In this document: one piece after another, positions 40,014-64,000 of the stretch | How positions within the stretch are numbered: position 1 is the first letter of the stretch | Layout: each line of letters begins with the position of its first letter | Source: Antedon mediterranea | Taxonomy: Eukaryota; Animalia; Echinodermata | NCBI RefSeq assembly: GCF_964355755.1 | Contig: NC_092675.1 | Coordinates: forward strand, 24,958,912 to 25,022,911 | Length of the DNA: 64,000 nucleotides | Direction of reading: 5' to 3' | Translations under genes and position numbers: made by a program | The notes under the pieces: model-generated | Database searches by the model: none | Told to the model about the DNA's origin: nothing | Seen by the model: the letters and a program-made list of their open reading frames with translations, nothing else

Positions 40014-43000
40014 TCATGGAATAGGAAGATCGTCTGCTGTCTGTGCTTCATCTGAGTCTTGTATTACTGCCGCACTTCCATCACATGTCACACAGCAGAT
40101 TTCTTCGTACCCCTCCAGTCCGCAATACAAATGCCGTAATTTAGGGTTGCACAGCAGAGAGCCTGAGACGGGAACGCATTTTTTGCTTTTTACTTCTACA
40201 GGTAAAAAAAGAAGAAACACGTTTAATTATATTGTCAATATCGAATCCAAAAGTCAGAAAAGCTTAGGTGATTCCAAAAATTGTATTGTGATTTAAAAGT
40301 AATTCCAAAAACTGATTGAACTTGTCAATGTTTATGAGCAAGTAAAATTGGTTTAACTTGGTAAAGTATGTGTGTAATATACCCTTTATCTTTAAGTATT
40401 TCCCAGTTTTTAGCATCATTATTATTATTTTGGGAAATAAAGAAACATAATGTTTATCTGTTTTCAGAATATCCTAAACCAATTGTTCATAAATTTGATG
40501 ATTCTCGTATTGTGGAAATTTAAAAACATTTTTCACGTGTTTTCTGAAAGTGGTGACAAAGAGTATATCCTAGAAGATGACACTTATTTGTAAGTGTCAT
40601 CCCGATTAGATGCAATTGAGTGGTGTGTGGGGCTTCATGTATCATGTCTACACTATCAAAATAGTGTGTCAAAAAAGTGTGATATGCCCAAATATGGTAG
40701 TCATATGACGTCATCGTGTCCATATGTGGGCACACCAAGTAAGGTTTGATAGTGTGGACAGATCTTTACTTTGAACAAACATGCTACATACATGCTACAA
40801 ACTACAACCAATTAACGGTACCTACGCTTGCTAGCACATTCACCCATGTCGCATTCACTGCTACTCTCTGGTTTGGTTTCAGGACATTGGTAATCTGAGC
40901 TTCGCATTGAAGGAATTGAGCAGGTTACAGTTCGTGTCATGACTCCAAGACCACAAGAAACTGAACACTAAAGGTAAAGAGCCATGCTTAGTCACAAACA
41001 TGTGTCGTACTAGTTCTAGACACTGAATTGCACGCATTTATAACACTCTGAAATTCCTAATGTCCATTTAGACTATCGTGCGGTATCATGTATTATAACC
41101 AATTCTTTATTAACTCTCACCGTACGTTACAGTATTGTCATAGAAAACAAATAACAAATGGCACAGAACGAAAACAAACAAAAAATAAAATCAAAAAATA
41201 TATATACGTATATATATACATATAGGCCTATAAACACATTAGGCTTGAAACATAAATATAAATATATATATAACCATGCTACAAGACAGGCTACATCATC
41301 CTATATAAAACGAAGGTACCGTCAGCAGAAACGATTTCTATCATGATCTTAACGTTCCTTTTAAAACTGTATTACTACAAAAATGCAAAAACTTGTTATT
41401 GAATAGGCACTATTGTACTAACCTCACTCCATTCTCCCGTCCTCCATACCAATGGGCACGGGTCGTTGTTGCATGCTTGACTATTTGCTGGCATTGGACC
41501 CGGGCATTTTCTATTGTTTACTGTATTTGCCCTCCCCTTGTCAACCTTTATGCAACGCACGCCACGAATTTGGATACCTCCACTACCACATGTTCGAGTA
41601 CAATGTTCCCATGGATCCGTTTGCCATTCGAATCTGTACAATAAACAGTTTAATTATTTTGTTTGTCAAATTATCGAGAGTCATTCTTTTTCAATAAACA
41701 TACAGTACTTTAAAATTGTGGACAAAAACAGTCAATTCCATCGATTTCAACTTAGAACCAAAACTCTACAAGAGAAGCATGTTTTCGTTTTGAACGGAAT
41801 ACACGAGGACGAATGTTAAATCGACCAACAATGCAGTCCTGATAATGAAACAAATGATACTGGGGTGTATACGCCCATTGCCACGTTTCTCTTTTGTATA
41901 AATTACGTCACAAATAACAAATTCACCAGGCATAGACGAATACATATCTATGTATAAGTACTGTATATTACCGTTTTTGTTTACATGGTTGTGTATTACA
42001 GAGTCTTCTGCTATTTATTGGATCATAATCTGCTTTTCCACAAAGTTCATTACCAACAATTTGATTGTCTGATTGTCGTCTGCATTCAAATGACTGGGTT
42101 TGCCATCCTGAAAAAATGAATCAATGCATTCATTTGATGTATTGGTGCATGCAGTTTTACAATAGTTTACATTTGCAATATTTGTTGGTCAACTTCGTCA
42201 TGATAATAAAATCAAGGCTTAGCCATAATTTCACAACAAAATGTACGCGCGTTCTGGAGACACGTTTCTGGTGATAAAGTCTGAATGGCGGATGTAAAAT
42301 AACGTCATAATTACAGCCGAATCAATAGCACTCCCACTACCAGATTTTGTTTGTTTGTAAGTCTAGACCAGACGGATTAAGAAGTTCAATATTCGTATTA
42401 ATGGGTCAAGAACAAATGTTTTTCCGGTTTAGAAGTAAAAATTAATTGAAAGGGGTTGTTGTATTTCGGTCAATATTATACCTCCCATCACCCCCGTATT
42501 TTGAGAATCATACGCCCCTTTTATTTATACGTAGGCGCATAAATTGCAGTTTGAGAAAAGGAACAAACCACTTACCTCCTCCACATTGTTTATTGCATTT
42601 TGACCATCCTACTTCTTGCCACAAGTATAAATCATCACTCCTTGATACTGCTAGGTCTTCAGACGGTAGCACGTATTTGTAAGTGAAATTAGCTCTTCGT
42701 TGATCTTTTGTACTGAATACCTAGAAGAAAAGTATACATAATATTTAGGCCTAATATCGTTGATACACAGTAGAACGCTTCATTTGGGCCACCCCTATCC
42801 AGGATTCTCGTATGAACGTACGAATGAGGGAAAATATTGTGCTTTGACATTACGATCAATCCCTATTCAGGATACACCCCTACCAATGAAGCACTTTGCT
42901 GGATGTCCCAAAGATGTCCCTCTAATAGGAGTTCCACTACTGCTATCCTATTTCATTGTTTTCACATTCATTTAGGGAAAAAATGTTATACTGGCCAAAT

Positions 43001-46000
43001 ACGTATTATTTCTTTCTTCCTTATTATTTAAACATTTGTTCGACGTCACGTGTTGCGTCTATGCATAACATAACACACGACGAGCAATGGTTCTACGACC
43101 TTACGCATGTCGCCTTATGGTATCATTTTACAATTATGGATTAAAAGATCGAAAACAAATCTTCTGAAATCCCTGATATCCCAGTCGTCCTTAACTCGTC
43201 ATAATTCACTCATTTGCAGTAATGAATTTATAATGAAATTGTCACGTACCATAAGTAACATGGATTGAGATATAGGTCCGTATGTTACGAGTTTCTCTTC
43301 AAAGCCGTCGTTTACATAGACAAAGTGGGATGCAACGTCCACGAATTCTTTTGACTGCGATTGCTTACCCATACCATTCAAAATCCAGCTTGATTTCTCT
43401 GGATTTTTTAAAGCTAAAAGAAATAAACCCATAGTGTTGAATTGTAACATGTATAAATTGAACATTTAATTGTGTTATGCTGTATTAAATTAATCTATTG
43501 TATATAATACTGGTACTATTCATTACTCTATTATATAATACTATTATTTACCGAAGAAATGTTTTGTATTTGTTACTTCAGTAATTTCAATGTGACGGGC
43601 GCCAGCTGGAATAACTACCACTCGCTGGTATTCTATAAAAAAAAAGCATAATTATTCAATTATTATTCTTCGACGACAGGACAATCAACTGTAATGAAAC
43701 ATCGCAAGGTGTGTGTTAATGTTTCCTGTATTAACTGTACTTGGACAGTTCGTAGTTCAATAACCCTAATAAGTAATTAATAGGTGTGTCTCTGGTTACG
43801 AATACAAAAAAGGAGAAATAGTTTATAAAATGTGTTCTTGTTTCATAGGGACTTGGATTTGATGACAAGTTATTAGGTGTGGTTTTCGTGTATCGGTTTT
43901 TATACAGGGAGAACAGAAAACGATACAAAGGCTTAATAGTTTGTAGGCCTAACACGGTCTTGTCTACGTTGCCTGGATATACACAACTATTTTAACCACT
44001 TTTTCAAAATGAAACTTACTCTTCTTTTTAGATTTCACGTAAGATCCCGTGACAGAACGACATTTAGAATTGTCACCCTCACAGATTCCACATAAATCCT
44101 CTGTCTTCCCCGATTCCAATACACTGTCACAACCAATTTCCTGTAATGAAAACAGAAGCGTTAAGACAATTTTATTTTCAATTACAAACAGAAAATCTAA
44201 TTGCATATCAGGAAGAATATACTTGTGATCCTCCCCTTATGGTGTCGCACCTCTACCCCGAGCTGATGAACGTGTTTGCACATATCCTGTCATCATCGTT
44301 ATCTTATATTGAATAGGGGAGTGTCCGAAATGTCCGCTCATCAAATCCAATTACTTGAGTTCATAACCGCAAGGAAAGTACGTTTGTATGATAACAGTTA
44401 TAATAGTTGACCTACATAACACCTGAGGCTCTTATTCAATTTTAAAACATGTATGATTATGCATAATATCAACAATATTAAAACACTCACAAACTAATTT
44501 GCCTATTACTTTGTTTCGTTAATAGCGACCTTTCGTTTTTCACAACGCGCCACTAGACTATCACAAGGCGCATGCTCATAATCATCTAAGAACGGTAGTT
44601 TCGTCGTTTTGCTTGTCACATCGTGAAACTAGAAATCATTATTTTTTTCTTAAAGTGTATGTCTTTTTCATTAAAATGTTAATGTCCTTTTCCTCAATAT
44701 ATTCTTTGAAAATTTATTATGATTTTACTTTAATTTACACTTATATTTCTAATATATCATCCGTATTTTAATCTATCACTTTTGTTTTTGTGTCGTTTTA
44801 AGGTCAGTGGAGGTTATTGCAAAGTAATAGAAAATAATTCATGTTTTTATAAAGTGTATTAAATCAAATAACAGTACCTGACATTTTCCTTGTACGCAAA
44901 TTCCATTAGGGTTGTCATAGGAACATCTGGTACCATCTATGACGTCATATTCTGATACTACAACATCTCCAGTGTTTTTAGACATGCATGTTAGACGACA
45001 TTGCAGAGAGCCTTTAAGACAATACGAAATTGATTAGAAAATGCAAATGTTTTACATTGCCATCTACAGTATTGTTTATGAGCTTTTAGTTTGAAATTAG
45101 GAAATAAATGAGGTATATTACTTTATATAAAAAAATTGTTAACCAGAGTGTTTTATACAGACTAAAAATAGAAATAATAAAACCATTGAACTTACTGTTA
45201 AGGTTTTCCATTGGTGCCCATGAATGCAGACGATCAAGGTAGCGCCAGTTAGACAGTTTATCTTTACATTGTGCTGCTCTTACGTCAGTCTTCTTTCCTA
45301 AGCAAGGCTAGAAATGGAATTAAGAAGCAAACGAATATTAAATAATAATTCCACATTCCACGTTGTTGTGTTATTAGCCAAACTATGGTAATACTGGTTA
45401 GTACTAACCTCAGCATTACACACTTTGAAATCTGTACTGCTACCGATACAGTCGGCACCTCCATCAGCAGGCCTGTGAAATTATCAATGTAAATTTAATA
45501 ATTTAAGTAATTTAACTGTCTTAATTTAACATTTTAAAGTTATTCAAACCATATTAATTTACTTTACCAATATGATGCTATAATAATATATACTATATAG
45601 GAAAGTCTCTTATACGCATGTGTATAAATATAAATACATCCTTTAGATACAAGTAACACATACTTACGCTGGGTTGTTACATTGTCTTGTTCTGATGGCG
45701 ACACCGGTTCCACAGGAGAATGAACATTCGCTAAATTCACTATATTCACTCCAACCCCCATTCACAACTGTAGACGTCACTATAGTTGTCGTCTTGACAT
45801 TTCCATTGTTCTTGGGTTTCTTTACACACTCTCCTTGCATACACCACTGAAAATACAATTATAATTATTAATTAATTATATTTATATTTTAAATGTCTGA
45901 TGTAATTGTTAAGCGTTGTGTGCTGAACTCAATTATTATTATCAGTTGTTTTGAAGCCGGATACAGGACCGGTTCTTTGTAAAGTTACAAAAGTAAAACT

Positions 46001-49000
46001 AAAATTTAGATAAAATATCACTTAATAGCAACATCAAAAAGCGCAACAAAATTACAATAGGTAAATAAATATAAATTTAGGTTCAGTCACATGTAAAAAA
46101 AAAATTAGAAAATACTACAAAGAATTGATCAAAATGGAAGTCAACAAACATTTGCATGAATAATCATAGACTCAAAGAAAACAAATTGTTGTAGAGAACA
46201 GTTCAAGAGAAAGAAAAACCTGCATTCAAAACAAAAATAGTAGGCCTACTGTACAATTTGTAGACCTACTATTTACAACCAATAAACGAATATTTGCAGA
46301 TTCATAGTAAAGTGAGAAACAAAACACTTTTTAGTGACATTTCGTAAAAGAAAAACATCAAATTATTTCAAAATCAATTTCTTAATCAAATATATTATAA
46401 AAATATCATAAAAACAAAGATCACACAAAAAGTATAGAAAAGTAGAAAGTATAAATATTAGGTCATTAAAAGTTAACTGAAGAATTGCTGGCATTGCACA
46501 TGCGCTCAATTATATATTTTTCAAATCAAGCTTTTTTGCACAAATGAAGTATAAGAGAACGAGATACAAAAACGGTTATTATAAATATTTTAAAAACTCT
46601 ACCTTTCAGTGGGCATATCTGCTGCTTTTAAATCTCGTGTACTTAATGTGTGTACGTTATGTTGTTTGTATGTTTGTTTAGATAAGATAGAAAAGTGTGT
46701 ATGTATGTATCTTGATGTTCAATATGTTTTAGTACTATATAGGGTACTGTACAAATATCACCATTGTGATTTTTCACTATTGATAGAGTCTATCTATCAC
46801 TAAAATCATCATCTATTTGCTGTAACTAAATCATCAACATCATCATCATTCATAATCATCACCATCATAAATAATAGGAAAGCAAACTAGCCTTCATTTA
46901 TGTTGTGTATATAATAATTATTATAAGATAAGTGTGTTTGTCTAACTAAACGAAATACCATTTTACAATAATTTATGTTAATTATTGCCATTGTTATAGA
47001 TACAAATCTAATTGCTGTTATTGTTATTAGTGTTGTTAGCAAAATTAACGTCAGACAGAATTATTAGAAAGATTATAGTTAGTAAACTTATAATACATGA
47101 ATTATGTTGGCAGCTTTACATTAAGTTCAACATGTTTTTCACTTCTTACACCATTTAAAAAAGGAATTCAACTAGGATCAAGTCTGGGGTCAGTTTATTC
47201 AATTACGTAATCTTACAACATTTGGCGGCAGCCTTCGTTATTATTTAACACATTAAATATATATAAACATCTGTTACAATTACAATTTATTACAGTTTAC
47301 AGAAGAAAACAAGTTACAAAACTGCCTGATTCATGACCAAAAAACATGCATTACACCTAGTGCTCGCAGTTTGTTTGAATGACGTCAGGAACGGGACGTA
47401 ACAACACTTATTGGCCAGGTAATATTGAGGTGATGTGGAAAACACCAGTTGATTAGGTTAGTATGTAAGTCATATCACTGACTGTTTTTCTTTTTATATA
47501 GATTATAATAACATTGTTCAGTTTTGGCCAACTTTGATGGAAACTTTCAAGTGATTTTGTTTTGTTTTATTTTAATAAAATACTGATTGTCAAAAGTCTG
47601 ATGGAGAGTTAGGAGAAATTTGGCTCGGCACACGGTTTAGAATTTGCTTTTCTTGCTCAATTCTCTCTTGGACTTCTTTACACATTTTCCGGCCATACAC
47701 CACTGGAATTTGGCATGGAATAAATGTAATGTTAGTATGTTAGTAGAGAACAACAATTAGTAATATTAGTTTCTACAAAAGTATGGCATTAATTACATAA
47801 CATCATATATAATAAAAAATACTTGTATATAAGGTAAGTATGTGTAATTTAAACGTTCGTAAATACTGTATTTCCCTAATATGCATTAAAATGTATTAAA
47901 GTATATACATTTCTTAATATATACAGAAAAAAAAACATTTTTAAAACAAATATGTAATAATGAAAACAAAAGTTGTATTGCAATGGATTGGAAAGCATGA
48001 ACTGAAAGTGTCGAATTCCTAAATCCAATAGTAATCCATTTCCACAACTAAACCTCAGATGTAAACACACAGAACTGGATAGATAAATTCATAAAGATCG
48101 CAATTCAAATCTTTGACCTAAATATTAATCTTAACAATTACGTTTGAAAAATAACCGGAAATAACATTCTCTTCCAAGAACAAGATAGTGTACCATACCA
48201 TTTCTTAGTTACATTTTATATAAAAGTTAAACGAAACAACGTGGAAATATATAAATCGCCGGATGTACATTATTCATGTAGCTGATGGAGTGACACAGGT
48301 GAAGTAGAATATCTAGAAAGAAAATGAAAGTCTTCCCAACTGACTATACAAACCACAAAGTCGAGTACCAGCTTATCAGCTAAAAGCAAAGTACTAAATT
48401 GTTTAGTGAATAGTCTTGAGTTTTAAAGGAGCAAGTTTAAACTGCAACGGAAATTATAAATATTGAAAAACTAAAAACAAGTTCACCAGCATGGACCGAC
48501 ACACAGACAAATCAAACTTTTGATAATTTCTTTTCTTAAAATTCTTCTTCTTCTTCTTATACTTCTTATACTTTGAACTAAGCCAATCCAAAGCTAACAT
48601 AATATTTCCTTTTAATTGATAATCATACAATTTAACATGATGGCTACCGACAAACAGTTTACAGAAAAACCGTTCCACTTTTTTTTAAGTTCTAAGCTTA
48701 AAACACTGTAAAATATATTGTTGAATATAGTAGGCAACACTGTCAAATATGGAATACATTTGTTGAACCTTAGAGGTAAAACAGTAAACTTGACTTCAAC
48801 CTCAAACACAACATGTCGTATTCACATGTGGATCTAGATAGCCAGTGGCACTTTGGTTTTCCCATTTATAGAATACATCAATGACGTCAACAACATATTC
48901 GCCTTTTTACCTAGTGATATATATTTAGATCTAGAGTACCTTGTGATGTATTTTAAAATATACGTGAGAGACGTTCAAACCGTGACTTCTTAAGCGTGGT

Positions 49001-52000
49001 TCCCACTAGCGACGCAACACAAGGACGTAACGCAACGCAAGTGAGTTGACCGATCACAAGCGATGGCTTATTCGCTTGTGATTGCTAACTGTCTATAACT
49101 TCGCTTGTCATTGGTTAAAACGCTTGTGTTGCGTTTACGTCCTTGCGTTACGTTCTAGTGGGAACCAAGCTTTAGATAAATGACCTGTTATTTTTAGTTA
49201 AGCTGCAATATATGTTGAACTACTGTATAAAGAAAATCATAGTTTTCTAATATGTGCAACTGCGCAAACGAAAAATGAAATCAAAACAATGTTAAAAATA
49301 GCCACGTAACAGGTATATTCCTGTCGTCAAAAGCTGGTGAATGGTTATACAAAAGTGGACAAACACCAGTCTTACCATCCCAGAGCCACATGAGCTACCC
49401 GGAAGAGCATAACCTAAATAATATCCATACCACGGGCTGGAACTATGTGAACATATCAGCTGGGAACAAACATCAAAATTGCACTGTAAAAAGTAAAGAA
49501 AACTATTACTTAAATGATGTTATGTTTTTCTTACCGACTTCTTGCGGCAAAATGTTCCATCAAGAGCTGGTCCTTTCTTGGTTTTACAAAAGAATGGATT
49601 TGAGGGTTGGGCACACCACAGTTGTCCACAAGGATCCATGGCACCGAACTAAAGAAATCATTTCAATAAACAATAGAAACAAAAATATTAAATCTATAAC
49701 ATAATAATTAAAGGTGGAATTATAATCACGTCTGGTGAACAATTCACAATTATTTGGAAGTTGTACATAAGTACACATATTAATATAACAATACAAGAAA
49801 ATAACAGTTATTTACCGCGGTACAACGTCCGAATTTATCACCGAAGTCAAATCGGCACTGGTCGTCAAGAGAGAATTTTTCGCCTGGTAATCCTGATGGA
49901 GCTTCGTATTCGGTATTACCACTATCATATGGGTTGTCATTCATACAAGTGTAGGAACTGTAATAAAAACATAGTGTTAATAAACTTACAGGCACGATGA
50001 TTCATGTTAAATTGTCAGATATTCCAACCCTCTTCTATTCCCTCCTAAAACAACTTCCATATAAACACGGAAATTACGCAGTTAGCTGGACACAAAAAAA
50101 GTACATTTTAAAGTGTTTATCTATTTTGTTTATTCAATTGTATTGTATATTAAAACAAAGAAAAAACTGCTGTAGTTTATATTATTAGGCCACAAATTTG
50201 TTTAATGCTATTGATAGTTTTTGAACAAAAAATACGGTATGCCTAGTTTACAAGTTCATTTAATCGAATGACAATGCGTTTTACGATATTAGAAGAAACG
50301 TTATGACCTGGTTTTTTATATATTCACAAAACACTATCATTTGATAGAACAAATCAACGTCCCGACGATTCTAATTGATACATTTTCAACTTTATAAAGT
50401 AAGTATTCGTACTTAAATAGACAAATATACTGAGTTGAATTACGATAAAATATTCTCCAGTCGATTTATCTGTTTATGTAATTAAAGAAATTTAATTTAT
50501 TAAAACAGGCATTGGGGAAACCAGGAAATTGTCATTATTTAGCAATTGTAATGTATGTCTATTGGGAAAACTTAAATACCGTACGCTGACAGCAACGTAG
50601 CTTGACAGGTGTAAGTAAACTGAACAAATTTTATATTTGAACTGACAAATTATTTTAATATTTTGAGGTAAAAATTAATTAGGATAATACTATTTTATCA
50701 GTAAGATAGATTTTGAAAAAAACATGTGAGGCGACACTGACACTCCGTGAATCCCAAGTCCATTCACAGCAAGAACAGGAAATTGAATTAAAACTTGAAC
50801 GTCGAGGTCACAAAATGTCAGTTTGCTCGGATTGGACGAATAAGTCGCGATCAACGATTTCACAACAAATAGATTACTTCGAATCTTAATTCAATAATTC
50901 GCTCAGACTGGGAGAGGTAAATATACGCGACAAGTAAAACATCCCTGTAGTATTATGCATCAAATTGTTTAATTATTTCTTTAACTTCAGATCTTTATCG
51001 GCAGTTGAGTAAAAATGCATAGTTTCAATAAACTATCTTTTCATTGCGTTGAGAGGTAACAATTCCCGACAACTAAACACCCTGTAGAATTATACCTAAA
51101 CGTGTTTAATTAGATCTTCAGATATGCATCTCAATTTGGGTAAAGGGCACGTATTGATTAACCTGGGCCAATTTCATACTACGAATTTTCCAAACACACA
51201 GTGCATAATCATCTGATATCATATTGTCTATAATACTTTATCTCTATCCTTATTGGCTTAATCGCAATTAAGTTAAATAGGAGTTGTATATCAAGGTGGG
51301 CTAGCTAACAGGTGAGTTTATCACTAGGTCAAGTCTCCGTAGATTCGAGGTAACAAATAATTCGCCAGCCAATCAGAGACTGTTGTTAAAATGACAAGTA
51401 TTGCATCTTTCCCACACAGATACAGTATAGCATTATGTTATTTCTCGATCTCTTGCTAAATTACACTTTAAGTTTGTTCCCGTTTGCACCTACCATTACA
51501 GCTCAGCTCAACTAGGGCTAGGGTGTCCCGTGGTTCTCATACATGGGTTCCATTGTTTCTATGACTAATTTGACATGTGGCAACCAAATGCATGGTAATG
51601 TACACTTGTCAGATTAAATGCAAAACGTTACAATGGAGTTTAAATGCCTTACGCCTACCGTACTTTAAACATTTAAAATCTCGACAAATCGTAAGATATT
51701 TTACTTTTTTACTTCTCTGTTGTTAATGTTAACTATGAAGGATTAATTTGACAGGACATTTCATCCCAACTATGGTTTCAATTATGTGATATCCCACTTA
51801 CCTAAAATATTGTTAAATATGCCAGTAAGCACCGGTCGTTTGTGCCAACTAGTACTATACTAAAGTCTGACCTTCTCGGGTGAATTAAAAGGAGGTTTTA
51901 ACTAGGATACAAATAATAATCAATTTATGGATTGAATTGAAATACTACAAATAAGACAATTTCAATTAAAACAAGGGTCTGAAAAGATATATGCAATATG

Positions 52001-55000
52001 CTTTTTTATATTAAATTATTAATCGTCATTAAATTCATATTAAAATTCTTTTCATTCGTAAGAATAAATTAAGAATTGCAAAAAAGCTGCCAAGTCATGC
52101 ATGGGCTAGAAGACACGTATTGATTGATTGGATACACATTTGAAAAGTTATCAAAATGATACGAAATGACGGGTCGATTAGATGAACATGACAGTTACCG
52201 TACCAATTGACAAATACAAGTTTTAGTGCATATACTTCTCATTTTCTGTTTGATTTAGTACCGTATCTATTTGCCAATTATTCGTTTTTTAAAAGGAAGA
52301 CTGACTTTCAACTAGGTTGGAAGTCTCCTGCAATGTTCATTTTTAGCAAGAAAACAGCTGATTTACTACAAGTACAAATCAAGCAGAACTCCTGACATTT
52401 GCATTTCGGTCCCATGCAGAATAAACAATAATGTATCGTGCTCATGCTCGGGGGCTTATATGTTTAAGACTTGTAATACCCATGTCCGCGAGTTTTTAAC
52501 GTTTAACAAAGAAAACATGGTATTAATTTGCATAATAATTAGCATTTCATTGGCAATCTGAAAACAATAACGTCACGTTCTATTCTGTAAACCTTATAAT
52601 ATTGTTTTCTCTTAACACCATACTCAAAACTTTACAATATACAAATTACATTAAGCTACAAACTCGAAGAGTATGGCAATACTTTTTTTCAGTTTAATCT
52701 ATTAATTTGGACGGCTCTTAGTATTGTTGAGACCCAATGTACACAGATTAATAATATCATTCACATTTCTTTTGCCAAGTAATAGGTCTACAGAAAATTA
52801 AGTAACCCAACACCTATAACCAACTAAATGACGACTGAACCAAAAAACAAAACGATAACTACTATTTATTTTAAATTACTAATTTTGATGCTTTTTGTTA
52901 ATTGATAGTTTTTAATTTGACGAGAGTTTATATAGTGTATGTTAAAATTAATTCATTTTAGGATATATTAAAGAAAATATTTGTTGCTAAAAATAAAGTT
53001 TACTGTATTTAACCATTTAATATCTCAGACATATCATTTATCAGATTGAAAGTTAAAGTCATTAAATTTTCTTTTCCTGATGTCGTAAATTTCACTTGAA
53101 GTTTGTGGGGCGGCTGGCGATTGAAAAATAAAATTGTGAATGTCAATTGCGATAAATCATTAGTCAATTCTCTTTCCTCCTCAGATTCCTCATTGATCTT
53201 TATAGCAGTATTAGCTTTATACTGATATAGCCAGGGTATGACCAGCCATTAGGGCCAAAATAGTGATGATGAATAATGAAAAAAAATGACGTTACGACAA
53301 TTTGTCTTTTTGTTTTTCTTTATTTTGACCATATTGGCTGCCCATGTTACAACTCTTAGAAATAATACGAAAGTAGACAACTACCAAAAGGGAAATAATA
53401 ATTTGGTTACATTCATTAAACTGATTAGTCTTAATTCGAAAGAGGCTAAAACAGAACGGAAATGAAAGGAAAGAAATAAAACTATATAATTGGGTAACTT
53501 TGTTCAATAATAGCATTACAGAAGTAATTTTGACAGTCTGCAAAAAAGTGTAAAATTCTAATGATGAATGTGTTTGATTTGTATAGGTATGTTGGTGTAA
53601 GGTAACAACTATTTTAATCCATGTCAAATGCCATTTATTATAGGCTACTTTAAAAACACGGTATGTTAATATAAATTAAGAAATTAAAATTAAAAGTACA
53701 TACAATCATGTTTTTCTGTTGGAAAATATTTCAAAATTAAGTCAAATTAAATTCGTATCCTGTTTGTAGTGTGCTATGACAGGTTGGGATTATTAATTTC
53801 GTTATAAAAATATGTTATTCCTGGGCTGAGGTTCCTTAAAGAGGTGTGTCGGCAATGCGAGATTCAAACGTTACTAATAAAATATGATACAGTATGCCTC
53901 CATTGAAAACCCCTTTCTTAAATCTTTTTACTCAACTACAACGTACCGAAACCTGAAAATACGTAGTTTTGTTCCCAAAAATATATGATAGAAATTAAAT
54001 CTGACTGATTGAGAAGTCAATTAACCGTTATCAACGTAACGTAACTACCGTTATCAACGTAACGTAACTACCGTTATCAACGTAACTACCGTCTGTATTA
54101 TAATTCTATTTCTCTAATATTCCAAAGTTTCTATTGTAAAGTCATGGCACATTGGAGGTATTTGGAAATGTTAGATTACCAAATGCGATATCAGAACGAA
54201 AACCGAATGTAATGTGTGTTTAGATTGACTGATAGTATTTAATTTGAAAGTGAAAATAACTTACTTAAGGTTGCTCTCAAGTTCCTTTTTGCTGCACGAT
54301 GACCAGAAGTATTTGTGGTACGTAGCTGTGACAAGAGGGGCCATGATACTACCTTTGTTTGCATCTTTTTTGCAAGCATTGCCCTGTCCGTCGTGGTCCA
54401 TTCCAAGCCTGAGAAACATTAAGTTAATTATGTTAGGGAAAGAGTATATCATATTTCTTCTATTCTAGACACCTCTATACGGTACCTACTTCATGCTATC
54501 GTAAAAAGGTGATATTTGCACACAATATAAACGTATTTAATGTGAACTTTGTTATGCTAGTTAGGCTTATAGCAACAGTTAGTGTAGATTAGTTTAACTT
54601 CACTTTTTTTTCAGGTTAAAATCTCAGAAGAGAACCTGATAAAGGCCAAGAGACAGAAAAGGTAATACAACTTTTTGTAAGTTAAATAAATGTATATAAT
54701 ACTAATCAGTGGCGAATTTGTGTTAACATTTTAACGAACAGTAGCGGTGCCGCGTGCCAAAATAGTTCTCGGAAGCGACGCTGACCAGTTAAGTTGTTGG
54801 GTCATTTTAGGCCGCGAAGCTCCTCATTTGCACCGCAATTGTTTGTGTTTAAATAAACTTACGTGTGTCCAACTTCGTGAACAGTTACAAAGCTTGTGAG
54901 CATACCGTCATCTTTCATCAAGCCACAACTTCTCATTGAGCACATGCTACCCAATGGTGCGTATCCTTAGTGTGCAAGCATGCATTTAAAAGAAGTGCGT

Positions 55001-58000
55001 GATGGGTTAGTATAGTATATTAAAAACCTAAATTGGAACCAGTTTGGTCCCATCAATGTCTATAAATATCATATTAAGTTCGTTAAGAGATTTGTCACAT
55101 AACATCTCTTTCTGTTGGAGAGTGCGGATTACAGATTCTAATACGTTTTACCATACGAATAACCTTTGAGAAGTATTGGCAATAATGCTTCAGGAGATCA
55201 AACGCCTAAATACAATAACTTTATAGAAATCAACACTCCCATAAATCAACAATTATTCTAATATTATGAATTAATAATAATCTGATAAGAGTTGTATTCA
55301 AATTATAATATAATACCAAAGTCATATTGGCGGATTAGTATACTAATTCGTAAACGTCTGAAAATTTTCAAAAAGGTCAATGACAGCAATTATCCGAGTT
55401 AACATTTTAAATTGTTATCGGATTTTTTTTAAAGTTCAAATTATATATCATTACGTTATAGTGAAAGGTAAGTGATCGTAGTGTTTTAATCTGATCATCT
55501 TCGAGATTTGGGTCTGAATTTTTAGGTCATCTTGATTCTAGATTTTTGGGTGACCTTGGTCTTGAGTCTCGCTTTAAGTTATTTGTGGTCTATCGCACTG
55601 TTAGGTAGTGAGTCTTTGGTCATCTGGGTCCATAGCCTAGCCTAAGTTATTTGGTTTATCGTACTGTTAGGTAGTGAGTCTTTGGTCATCTGGGTCCATA
55701 GCCTAGCCTAAGTTATTTGGTTTATCGTACTGTTAGGTAGTGAGTCCTTGGTCACATAGGGTCCAGAGCCTGGCCTAAGTTATTTGGTATATCTTGCTGG
55801 TCTAGATTGTTTGGCCATTTTTGGTATAGAGTCTGGTCTAATGCGTTTTATAAATTTGTATGAAAGTGGTTTGGTTGGGTGTATTGGTAACATTTTAGTT
55901 GTGTCAGGTTGCATTCTAAATAACTACCCGGATGTGTCTGAAAGTAAGCTGAACAAACTTAATTTATAATCGTTAAGAATCTTGATCTTGTCGTCCAGGT
56001 ACTGATTTTTCATTAGAAAACAATGAAACCTATTTATTTTAACGTACGTTAGTGGGCTTTTAACACGGGTCACAACACTGGTCTATACTATAGATTATAT
56101 TATTAGCCTAAGTGGACGATTCGAAGGCATGCTATAACGGAAAGCGCCAGGCAGGTTAGGCAACGTTTGAGTACTTACAGGTGTTCAGATGAACTTTAAT
56201 CGTAAATTTTTGTTAGATCATAAATTGAAGTTGTTGAAAGAAAGATAGACTGGGGCTTAATACGTAAGTGTTAGAGTGCAATGGTGTTAGAGGTTACTTA
56301 ACATTGAGGAAATTAGCAAGGAATTTGATAAACTTTGACAAAGTCCTTCAGGCAAACTTCATATTTTACTGTTAATCACGAAGTTAATAAGCATGGTGTT
56401 GTCTATCTAGCTTTCTTTCGGTGAGTGGGTTAGTAATGGTTGCATGTTTTAAAGGAAATCCCACTTACACATGGCCCACCTCGTGTGAGGCTACAAATGC
56501 CGACAAAAGGCCTTCATCTCGGGTGAGGGCACAACTTCTGGGACTATTACACATACCCCTCACAGGGCCATATCCTGAAAGCATTCAACGTATTTTGTGT
56601 TAAAACTAGATAAAACACAAACTGACACAACGCCGTATGACATGATCTTATCAACCTTCAAATCGAAATATTGCGTTGTCTTACGTCACAGTTAAAATAT
56701 GTGCAATGTTCTCTTACCTGCTGGTCCGAAGCTGTCACGTGTGAAGAAGAGAGCCAGATCATGATGTTCCTTATTGCTATCGTCTGGGTGGTTTGCTTTG
56801 TAAGCCCATGTGCATACTTTTCTCAAACTGGCGGCTGGTGAACCACTGATCATTCCGCTTGACTGTGGAGACAAAACAATTAAGTTTAAATATTTTCTAT
56901 ATAACATAAGTAATACATGTGTTTTTTAACTTGAGATTCATGGATATTTAATATTTGTTAATGAGCTATTTTAAAAAATGTATATATTACCTGTGACTTG
57001 CTGAGCATTACAATTCTGATGACAGCAACTGTGACATCGATGTTCAATGATTTGTGGTGGTATGCTTCATTTACCTAAACAACAATAATGCAATAGTTCT
57101 ATTTAGTTTTAGTTATGCATTATTTAACATAGAATAATTGCGTAATGTATACAGTATACGGACGGCGGTTCAGACGTGTTCCCATCCTTCATTGCTGGTC
57201 GCTTACCGGCAGATCGGTGCTTGTAATACGGACCATCGTTGTTTTAAATACGAATGAATTTAACTTTATGTCATTACTTTGTACTTATTGTTACTTAAGC
57301 GTGGTTCCCACTAGCGACGCAACACAAGGACGTAACGCAACGCAAGTGAATTGACCAATCGCTTATTCGCTTGTGATTGCTAACTGTCTATAACTTCGCT
57401 TGTCATTGGTTAAAGCGCTTGCGTTGCGTTTACGTCCTTGCGTTACGTTCTAGTGGGAACCAAGCTTTACATGATAATTTCAGACGGCGTTATTTTAAAT
57501 ACTGTTAAACACGTTATGTACATCATAATATCAATAAATATCGGTAAAATATACCATTCATATTCATGGCACACGATACAAACGTAAGTGATTCAATATC
57601 ATTACATATTAACGGTAGGCTTATTACTTAATTGAATCTATTTGTGCTTTGTCACGAAATTTGTAAAAGCCTAATAACATACGGAAAGTGAAAACATACT
57701 TATTTAAAATGTTCAAACAAAAGTTATCAAAACAATTAGATTATAGACAAAGGTCAATATTTAGAGACTGTAAAGTTCATCATTAGATAGATGAACTCAA
57801 TATCACAACACGGTACAGTATAATTATCTTCTGTGGGTACATGTTCCTTAAGCTCTGTCTACACTGTCTAACTAACTAACACTACTTATGTCTACATTCC
57901 ATTGTACATTAAGACACTTTCCGTTTCGTTTGAGCTGTTTATTCTTACTCCAGTAAGAAACCAATGTAAATATTGTATGGGTAAAGTACTTACGATGTTC

Positions 58001-61900: not shown

Positions 61901-64000
61901 TTGGCGCTCTTTTTGTAATTTCGGATGTTGTATTCCCAACAAGAGAAACGCATTTCGCGCTATTTAAATCACTTCATTAAACCAATAAATGCATTATCTG
62001 TTTTCGTATTGTTTTTCGTAACATAGCATATTCGACGTTTTTGTTTTGCATAGTTTTGACGCCACTGGACTATTTACCTCACATCCCAGCTCGTATAACC
62101 CTCTGCATTCGTAAATTCGATATTTTCATCAACAGTAGGCTTTCCTAACCATATAACTCCACTGGTACAGTATTAGGTTACGCACGCCAACCGAGCGCCT
62201 AATTTTTTCTGCGAGCACATGCCGAGCGGGAACAAGTCAACGTTCTATTATCCAATTATTAAAGCGGCGGAGACGATGGTGTTATACCGTCACGTTTCTT
62301 CGTGCAAACCTATCACTTTCTTAGCAAGAGCACTATGGGAGATGGGCAACCGTGGAGATAAACATTTTTGCCCAACGACTTGTGAGATTGATCCGTTCAA
62401 AGTTGGTAGCTTTCCGGGTAGCTTTCTCATGAAATTGAAAAGTAGATTCTATGCAAGAAATATACGAGTATACGAGTCGCGCTACTATCGCAGCCAATGG
62501 TACTTATATACAAGGACAACTTTTAGAAGCTATGATTTTTACCTATTTTATCCATTATGTAGCCTATTAAAATAAATAACGTACATTAACGACTTTCTGA
62601 ATGACATTGAATAGTTAATAAGTTCAATTATATTGTAGTTAGCCGGGGGTTTGTTGAAATATCACGATTTAACGCAGACAGAATGATACACAATGTAAAC
62701 TAAATGATGAAATCATAAACTAAAATGCCCGATGATTATTAATAGTAAATAATGTTAACATCCTTCATCGTGATTATATTAACGATAATTTATTCGATTG
62801 GCTTTGCCGATGCAATCGTAAGATAAGTAAGTGATGTAATAGTAAAATCGAGGTTTAGTTGCTTTATATGGACAGATCACAGAAATCAGTGACTAAATTT
62901 CACATTTCTACGTTATCTTTAGTTAACAAAAATCCTTCATTCGTTTTTAATATAACCAGGTCATCATTACATCGATTCAAATTTGAAATGTAGCTATGAA
63001 TACAGTAATCTGTAAAGAGTTTGTTATAATCTAGGGGAGAGTGCGTGTAATAATGCTCTGGAATTCCACTTTCTATATTACACGTGTACATGTCTAGTAT
63101 CTACCACATGAGATCTAAAACAGTATAAACGTAGCATGTTTGTAAAAAGGTGTGGGGGGGGGGGGTGAAATAAGTGGTGACATTTTGATGAAAGGTTGAG
63201 AAGTAGGAGCATTTTATTGGGTAATCTATTAAGATTATCAGAACATATATAATTATTATATTCTTGTTTTCATCCATCACTCATGGATGTTATAAAAATA
63301 AATGCATCGTAAATGTACACATAACTTGATAACTCGATAAGGAGCTAAAAACGATTTGTGTTTTTTTTATAACAGAGAATAAAAAATGAAACGAAACCAT
63401 TAAATTTCTCATTGTTGATAAATGAAATGTGATTCTAAAATGTTTTACTGTGATAGCCTCCCTTGTTCAAGTTGTTACTGTGCTAGCTAGCTACCACACA
63501 GGCTCGTACGATTACCGAACTGGGAGATTTGGCCTCATTTCGGCCGATGACGTCATAAAACGGCTATAATGTAAACTCAATTTGGCATTCCAACTCTTGC
63601 CAGCAAACTATCTTCTCCCCGGGAGAAATCTGTTTTTTTTCTCTTCGTCCCATTTGTCTGCTTCGATTGACACCGTGGGAGGCATTTTTGCACGCATCAG
63701 TTCGAAGCTTTTTATTGAAAATGGTAAACTTTTGTATTACCATTTTCAATTTCCCAACTAAATTTCTTCTATTTTTTTTTAACAGTTTTATACAATTTTA
63801 ACTCTAATTTACACACGCATTAGCTTGTTATCTTTTTATCAAAAAACCTATTTATATTTCTCAAATAAAACTGTTTTTAATCAAATGTCATACTTCTCAT
63901 CTGAAACCTTTTACATTAATGTTTTTATACACTATATCAGTGGGCACATCCTTGCAATTATTGGCCACTTAAAGTGTCAGAAAATATGAAATCTTGTATC

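Follow-up and report, generated by a model that had tools for sequence, protein, structure and literature searches.

In the crinoid Antedon mediterranea, a minus-strand gene for an ADAMTS3-like metalloprotease carries two tandemly duplicated copies of the exon that encodes the core of the catalytic site. These copies, here called exon A and exon B, are likely spliced in one at a time, so that a single gene would give two enzymes, with 16 of the 36 positions near the catalytic zinc differing between them. The gene lies in a stretch of 64,000 nucleotides (NCBI RefSeq assembly GCF_964355755.1, contig NC_092675.1, positions 24,958,912 to 25,022,911 of the forward strand), referred to below as the window, and all positions are given in the numbering of the window. 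The reading of A and B as a real and conserved pair of homologous alternative exons is well supported by the evidence laid out below, and we hold it with considerable confidence.

The two exons were reported in a first-pass annotation made from the DNA letters, whose coordinates, lengths (106 and 103 nt), phases and peptides (36 and 35 residues) proved exact to the base. Both exons enter in phase 1, exit in phase 2 and occupy one slot between the same flanking exons, and either of them can be joined, as had been proposed, to the upstream exon ending in FGPA-G (position 56718) and to the downstream exon starting with LGMDHD (position 54408). The two peptides share 20 of 36 residues and the DNA 61 of 107 aligned nucleotides (57%), an A-form query protein matches exon B by tblastn with an E value of 6.5e-08, and the copies stand 1503 nt apart with no exon in between; A and B arose by tandem exon duplication. 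Translation confirms that the two Cys, both zinc His and the catalytic Glu are retained in both copies, which also have in common the His-Glu-x-x-His arrangement and the Asp/Gly turn ahead of the helix, while the number of Met is four in B vs one in A. The acceptors read ..tttcag/G for exon A and ..actaag/G for exon B, and both donors are /GTAAGT. Both acceptors are weak, that of exon B (aag/G) more so than that of exon A (cag/G), and weak acceptors are usual in regulated exons.

The reading frame stays open when A alone or B alone is included. As predicted from the 3n+1 length of each exon, joint inclusion and joint skipping both break the frame: A and B together meet a stop six codons into exon B, and a transcript skipping both meets a stop in exon 49957-49816, the second exon downstream. 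These premature stops sit upstream of later exon junctions.

Both copies are found in a second crinoid. A search with the downstream exon returned one long protein, which is isoform X2 of an ADAMTS3-like gene in the feather star Anneissia japonica and matches the exon at 87% identity; its 90% cluster consists of three RefSeq isoforms: XP_033127267 (X1), XP_033127268 (X2) and XP_033127269 (X3). Isoforms X1 (A-like) and X2 (B-like and one residue shorter) are identical outside the cassette columns of the alignment, and X3 has an A-like cassette and a different C-terminal end. Both exons recur in the same slot of the same gene in a second species, and the finding is far beyond chance. With both cassettes present in isoforms X1 and X2, the pair is older than the split of the two crinoids. 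Between the two species the cassettes are identical at 32/36 residues (A) and 34/35 residues (B), and the least conserved exons of the same gene at 28/44 and 31/47, that is 59/91 residues. At the latter rate, conservation this good would arise with a binomial probability of 1e-3 (A) or 5e-6 (B), a conservative test, as the comparison exons are themselves coding. By this comparison both copies are under purifying selection. Neutral decay of exon B, which the first-pass annotation had named as a ground for abandoning the pair, is the opposite of what is found: B is the better conserved copy and is seen in spliced RNA (see below). The polymorphism of run X1 (the RNA-bearing run described below) amounts to 12 intronic letter changes and 3 indels per ~2100 intron bases and 0 in A or B, where 1.2 would be expected (P = 0.30, uninformative).

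Splicing in Antedon itself was followed in the contigs of one RNA-bearing run from the same organism (run X1, tissue unknown), from one list of joints at a threshold of 10 in 100 and a second list giving 15 of 39 joints. The run was taken as RNA because its contigs skip predicted introns, with GT..AG ends, at 11 or more of the predicted exon boundaries of the gene (some joints having sides of 73, 135 and 142 letters). One contig links the donor of exon B to the downstream exon (54863>54408, side of 20 letters), and two records stop at the acceptor of exon B, where they carry 12 loose letters identical to the last bases of the upstream exon. Exon A is represented by an 880-nt contig in which it directly follows the upstream exon (56718>56574, side of 27 letters) and which then runs past the donor of A into the A-B intron, to position 55717; since this partly spliced contig makes that joint, the acceptor of exon A is recognised by splicing. 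That exon B, and not A, is the form present in spliced contigs had not been noticed in the first-pass annotation.

The place of the cassette in the enzyme was examined in an AlphaFold2 (AF2) model of the A. japonica B isoform, built from an alignment of 86 sequences; a first AF2 model from 26 sequences was unusable, with a mean predicted local distance difference test (pLDDT) score of 53.9 and a catalytic domain below 50. In the model used, the cassette (residues 340-374) has a pLDDT of 86-95, and the catalytic plus disintegrin-like part superposes on the crystal structures of ADAMTS1, ADAMTS4 and ADAMTS5 with template modelling (TM) scores of 0.81-0.85 and root-mean-square deviations of 2.4-3.9 Å. 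DSSP assigns a two-residue bridge (340-341) directly after the constitutive FGPA. Next come a loop, which holds the first Cys, and a strand (353-357) beginning at the second Cys; after a turn, His369, Glu370 and His373 lie in a helix (363-374). In the B model the cassette thus takes up the bridge at the cleft rim, the strand after it and the active-site helix, in keeping with the earlier proposal that the copies differ over the rim strand and this helix. A and B differ by 15 substitutions and one deletion, 16 differences that lie on the rim, in the loop and the strand, in those helix turns that precede the first His, and at the residue following the second His. In a sequence alignment with ADAMTS5 the first cassette residues lie opposite the stretch after TLG, the TLG strand being the one on the cleft rim that binds inhibitors. 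Substrate binding in M12B proteases is described as a beta-sheet-like extension along the cleft, and ADAMTS4 as having a mobile disulfide-bearing loop beside the region equivalent to the cassette, in the sections of PMC4885070 consulted.

The Reprolysin domain of the A. japonica isoforms scores 59.0 and 60.7 bits in Pfam against a cut-off of 20.8, and for both forms a folded domain with intact catalytic machinery is predicted. The swap would likely change the shape of subsites or the fit of inhibitors rather than catalysis itself, and two enzymes with different clefts, which may differ in specificity or TIMP sensitivity, are plausible. A Protein Atlas search returned generic reprolysin clusters only.

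Several points weigh against the reading of A and B as alternative exons that are both in use. Among the joints examined in run X1 none leads from the donor of exon A to the downstream exon or to exon B, and the run-X1 contigs show no mature mRNA in which exon A is followed by the downstream exon, the sole A-containing contig being partly unspliced. The summed contig depth of 28,500 over exon B vs 6.6-25.9 over exon A and the introns cannot rank parts of the gene, and gives a weak hint only that B is the main form in the sampled material. The sides of the key joints (20, 27 and 12 letters) are shorter than the 31-letter rule for counting a bridge; despite this rule a chance origin is unlikely, because the GT..AG boundaries are exact. 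Isoforms X1, X2 and X3 of A. japonica were predicted automatically for RefSeq, and the alignment behind the B model consists mostly of A-like sequences, so that the model cannot reveal a distortion specific to B. Of the junctions that the first-pass annotation had proposed to look for, 56718>56574 and 54863>54408 were seen, 56718>54965 is represented by the 12-letter loose ends, and 56469>54408 was not among the listed joints. Its claim of a mutually exclusive pair therefore stands in part: the exons are homologous, share one slot and are each coding-competent, the A. japonica isoforms differ only by the cassette, and B is spliced to both neighbours, whereas a mature A-only mRNA was not seen in the Antedon contigs. 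The evidence for exactly one copy per transcript consists of the annotated A-only and B-only isoforms of A. japonica and of the B-only junctions in the Antedon contigs.

The same observations could be accounted for if exon B were effectively constitutive in Antedon and A a little-used copy or a relic, found mostly in unproductive, intron-retaining or A+B transcripts, with one working enzyme made. The sole exon-A contig of run X1 does retain the A-B intron, at an intron-like depth of 25.9, and the contigs of exon B are joined on both sides at depths in the thousands. We nevertheless consider this explanation unlikely: A has intact splice sites, an open frame and the 32/36 conserved residues as against 59/91 in the least-constrained exons, it is nearer than B to the enzymes of all other animals, it is used in two A. 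japonica RefSeq isoforms (X1 and X3), and a single RNA run of unknown tissue cannot show absence. Contigs attest presence rather than absence, and with 15 of the 39 joints listed a rare one may be missed. Still less probable is a control of dosage, in which the choice of A or of A+B would divert transcripts into decay or nuclear detention and thereby set how much B enzyme is made. The A+B stop six codons into exon B and the retention of the downstream intron in the A-containing contig would fit such a scheme, but a poison exon has no need of conserved catalytic residues, and in A the two Cys, the two His and the Glu are intact and 32/36 residues are shared between the species, which argues for selection on the protein. 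An artefact, whether a duplication in the assembly or an intronic frame open by chance, had nothing in its favour and can be taken as refuted: the DNA of the copies is 57% identical, which excludes a collapsed or duplicated haplotype, the whole stretch is matched by three DNA runs bar one intronic letter in run X5, and both copies recur in A. japonica.

If A and B are alternative exons, as we prefer to read them, the choice of one copy for each transcript would be made by the spliceosome and controlled by tissue or stage, with B as the probable default in the sampled material. The 3n+1 lengths would make any outcome other than one exon unreadable, and the A+B and skipped transcripts are predicted, because of the positions of their stops, to be substrates of nonsense-mediated decay. 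With the chosen cassette the last part of the cleft-rim strand would be exchanged, as would the Cys loop, the strand that follows and turns one to three of the active-site helix, while the zinc ligands and the catalytic Glu would be kept through the swap. As for the means of exclusion, no mechanism of competing RNA pairing, steric hindrance or U12 splicing is evident in the crinoid pair. Steric hindrance is ruled out by the 1503-nt A-B intron, and U12/U2 incompatibility by the four splice sites, all of which are GT-AG with GTAAGT donors. The only inverted repeat of note brackets exon A (56611-56631 with 55898-55918; 21 nt, 81% complementary, with a 10-bp perfect core) and its pairing would loop out exon A; with an estimated ~0.5 such 10-bp cores expected by chance it is no better than chance, and was not used as evidence for RNA pairing.

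With regard to the origin of the two copies, the B isoform was searched against 1.84 billion representatives and the best 148 sequences other than the query were taken, 94 of which carry HExxHxxGxxH. Of these motif-bearing outgroup segments, 71/94 are closer to A, 15/94, all of them distant (20 identities or fewer), are closer to B, and 8/94 are ties. Among the segments compared, no B-like sequence occurs outside A. japonica, the top B score being 21 identities vs 34 for the A. japonica B cassette; this top scorer, a protein of Diadema, has 24 identities with A. The HEVGH motif is found in both A and B, and HE[T/S/A]GH in other echinoderm, hemichordate and vertebrate relatives. In a tree of the 36-residue segment the echinoderm sequences group together (support 72) and the branch of B is several times longer than that of A. 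We infer from these comparisons that B is probably the derived copy, which would have changed fast after the duplication and been nearly frozen since, and that the duplication probably took place in the crinoid lineage or shortly before. A phylogeny of the A and B peptides had been suggested as a means of dating the duplication; it gave no date, since the tree left B unplaced (support 38-62).

The exon pair belongs to an ADAMTS gene that spans ~58.9 kb to 40.0 kb of the window on the minus strand, in AT-rich DNA of ~27-39% G+C. A Pfam scan of 150 of the 369 minus-strand stop-to-stop open reading frames (ORFs), from 63.8 kb down to 39.2 kb, gave in order Reprolysin, ADAMTS_CR_2 (disintegrin-like), TSP1, ADAMTS_CR_3, the ADAMTS spacer and three TSP1_ADAMTS repeats. 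The Reprolysin domain (PF01421) is matched on exons of the window, and its HExxHxxGxxHD is completed by cassette A or B alike. The ADAMTS succession of disintegrin-like domain, central TSP1, Cys-rich domain and spacer is borne out by Pfam, by the tblastn exon map and by model matches to structures of ADAMTS13 and ADAMTS1/4/5. The named protein matches are mostly ADAMTS3 or ADAMTS3-like, with a few ADAMTS14, which points to the ADAMTS2/3/14 subfamily, and the best full-length matches are the vertebrate ADAMTS2/3/14 at 35-42% identity. The gene is thus, by kinship of sequence, that of a crinoid ADAMTS3-like protease of the subfamily of procollagen N-proteinases. Because the exon preceding 58945-58798 (minus strand) is absent from the window, the 5' end of the gene lies past base 64000, with the 5' exons for about the first 160 codons. 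The crinoid proteins have no match to the Pfam propeptide (PF01562) that their relatives show. The coordinates of the features are collected in Table 1. The long-form exons are connected in RNA by the joints 42106>42575 (side of 135 letters), 40967>41423 (side of 142 letters), 41633>41972 and 40195>40826, with contig depths of 373-553 in run X1.

Table 1. Features of the crinoid ADAMTS3-like gene around exons A and B (window positions; "side" is given in letters, and depths are those of run-X1 contigs).
Feature	Position	Strand	Remarks
Constitutive upstream exon, 145 nt	56718..56862	-	Ends in FGPA and the first base of a Gly codon; splice sites; RNA joint 56862>56991 (side 73); 92% identical to A. 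japonica
Intron between upstream exon and exon A, 143 nt	56575..56717	-	GT..AG; skipped by one run-X1 contig (joint 56573>56717, side 27, depth 25.9)
Exon A, 106 nt, cassette copy 1 (36 residues including split codons)	56469..56574	-	HEVGH; nearer than B to the ADAMTS2/3/14 of other animals
A-B intron, 1503 nt	54966..56468	-	Three tandem 66-nt repeats at 55586-55783; run-X1 contig depth 13-26
Exon B, 103 nt, cassette copy 2 (35 residues)	54863..54965	-	HEVGH; one residue fewer; RNA joint to downstream exon and loose end equal to upstream exon
Intron between exon B and downstream exon, 454 nt	54409..54862	-	Skipped in run X1 (joint 54407>54862, GT..AG, side 20, depth 10,049)
Constitutive downstream exon, 144 nt	54265..54408	-	Starts with LGMDHD (third zinc His); Met-turn region; Pfam Reprolysin; splice sites; joint 49957>54265
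Disintegrin-like exon, branch point of short and long isoforms	49535..49648	-	38/38 residues equal to A. japonica; joints 49648>49816 and 47702>49535
Alternative terminal exon, coding part, 21 codons and stop	47637..47702	-	RNA joint 47702>49535
Long-form exons: central TSP1, Cys-rich, spacer, three TSP1 repeats, C-terminal Cys tail	40020..45846	-	Pfam, tblastn, RNA joints

A second choice in the same gene concerns its 3' part, where a short isoform, which was absent from the first-pass annotation, ends in an alternative terminal exon. In a run-X1 contig with a depth of 25,000, as against 373-553 at the long-form joints, the disintegrin-like exon (49648-49535) is spliced to an exon absent from the annotation, which begins at 47702 (GT..AG, side of 21 letters). 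This terminal exon partly duplicates the beginning of the long-form exon that follows (45846-45670), and it provides the disintegrin-like domain with its last two Cys before the stop. A contig over 46485-47382 (depth 2,344 in run X1) is likely the 3' untranslated region of the short isoform. The predicted product would be a bare catalytic-plus-disintegrin protease devoid of any thrombospondin repeat, and thus a natural minimal enzyme of this kind; the pair of catalytic and disintegrin-like domains is described as a stable functional unit in the portion of PMC4885070 consulted. An isoform ending after the disintegrin-like domain is not among the three A. japonica RefSeq isoforms, and a search for shorter homologues yielded one protein among 49 candidates, which at 45% identity was of no use.

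Homologous mutually exclusive exons produced by tandem duplication are a well-known kind, with examples in PKM (exons 9/10), FGFR2 (IIIb/IIIc), CaV1.2 (exons 8/8a) and tropomyosin. The crinoid pair resembles them in consisting of adjacent homologous exons of near-equal length and equal phase, likely used one per transcript, and the swap would likewise keep the fold and change a functional surface; it resembles those pairs with 3n+1 lengths in that joint inclusion shifts the frame. It is unlike them in that a metzincin's catalytic Glu and two of its zinc His lie in the cassette, a situation of which the literature searches returned no described case. The closest comparison is the A. japonica ADAMTS3-like gene, which is the same gene with the same slot; the pair therefore adds to a known kind, with the A. 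japonica isoforms already in RefSeq, and we found no publication on isoforms X1, X2 and X3. The vertebrate ADAMTS2/3/14 have the same domain order, and their cassette region aligns without large gaps; unlike in crinoids, the cassette stretch is nearly invariant and has no second version in the vertebrate ADAMTS3 sequences listed.

Within the ADAMTS family, alternative splicing is reported for ADAMTS2, 4, 6, 7, 9, 13 and 17, and changes in the spacer are described for ADAMTS4 and ADAMTS17, in the retrieved part of a review of ADAMTS regulation (PMC8275829), in which the term "mutually exclusive" does not occur. In the abstracts and titles returned by a full-text literature search, neither a swap of a catalytic-core cassette in ADAMTS nor this crinoid gene is described. 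As far as these sources extend, reported ADAMTS splicing concerns ancillary spacer domains, whereas the crinoid swap exchanges the core of the active site, with the zinc ligands kept. If both forms are made, one gene would give two proteases with different clefts, and the pair would be a natural experiment on the residues of the rim strand and active-site helix that set substrate and inhibitor specificity in metzincins.

Swaps of homologous blocks are also seen in ADAMTS3-like proteins of other echinoderms, known in these cases from the proteins of automatic models. In a holothurian-type cluster, the RefSeq isoforms X1 and X2 (P0276/P0275) have homologous but different versions of the exon that directly precedes the HExxH exon and corresponds to 56862-56718 in the window, the FGPAG cleft rim included; the PIK-numbered members of this cluster have a prefix which we take to be that of Apostichopus japonicus. 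In Amphiura filiformis, isoforms X1 and X2 (P0123/P0074) differ by a homologous swap in the disintegrin-like domain, corresponding to exon 49648-49535 of the window. Both pairs are like the crinoid one in that one homologous block of ~40-50 residues is exchanged in the protease or disintegrin-like module, and unlike it in that other exons are swapped; the Amphiura gene may be a paralogue. Three different swapped ADAMTS3-like blocks in three echinoderm classes suggest a recurrent theme.

Quick stiffening and softening of collagenous tissue, large TIMP repertoires and a role of metalloproteases in mutable connective tissue are described for echinoderms in PMC10381214. It is a tentative idea, offered as conjecture, that in ADAMTS3-like genes of echinoderms evolution has repeatedly produced exchangeable parts of the protease cleft, which together with the crinoid choice between short and full-length forms would make a splicing-coded set of proteases with differing fits to substrates and TIMPs, serving the rapid remodelling of mutable connective tissue against expanded TIMPs. 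Such a splicing-coded choice of cleft, reached in three classes at three exons, would link splicing to the control of the matrix.

Some further features of the window were noted. The three 66-nt tandem copies in the A-B intron (55586-55783) are 100%, 97% and 67% identical to the reference copy. Run-X1 contigs of very high depth join places at ~49059-49176, 57297-57874 and 40670-40680 with non-canonical ends, and these intronic places look like an interspersed repeat family abundant in the RNA run, which would inflate the local depth. Finally, reading past 40826 (minus strand; the end of exon 40967-40826) into the intron gives a few residues and then a stop, which resembles the short, alternative C-terminus of A. 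japonica isoform X3, and the normal joint 40195>40826 is present in run X1.

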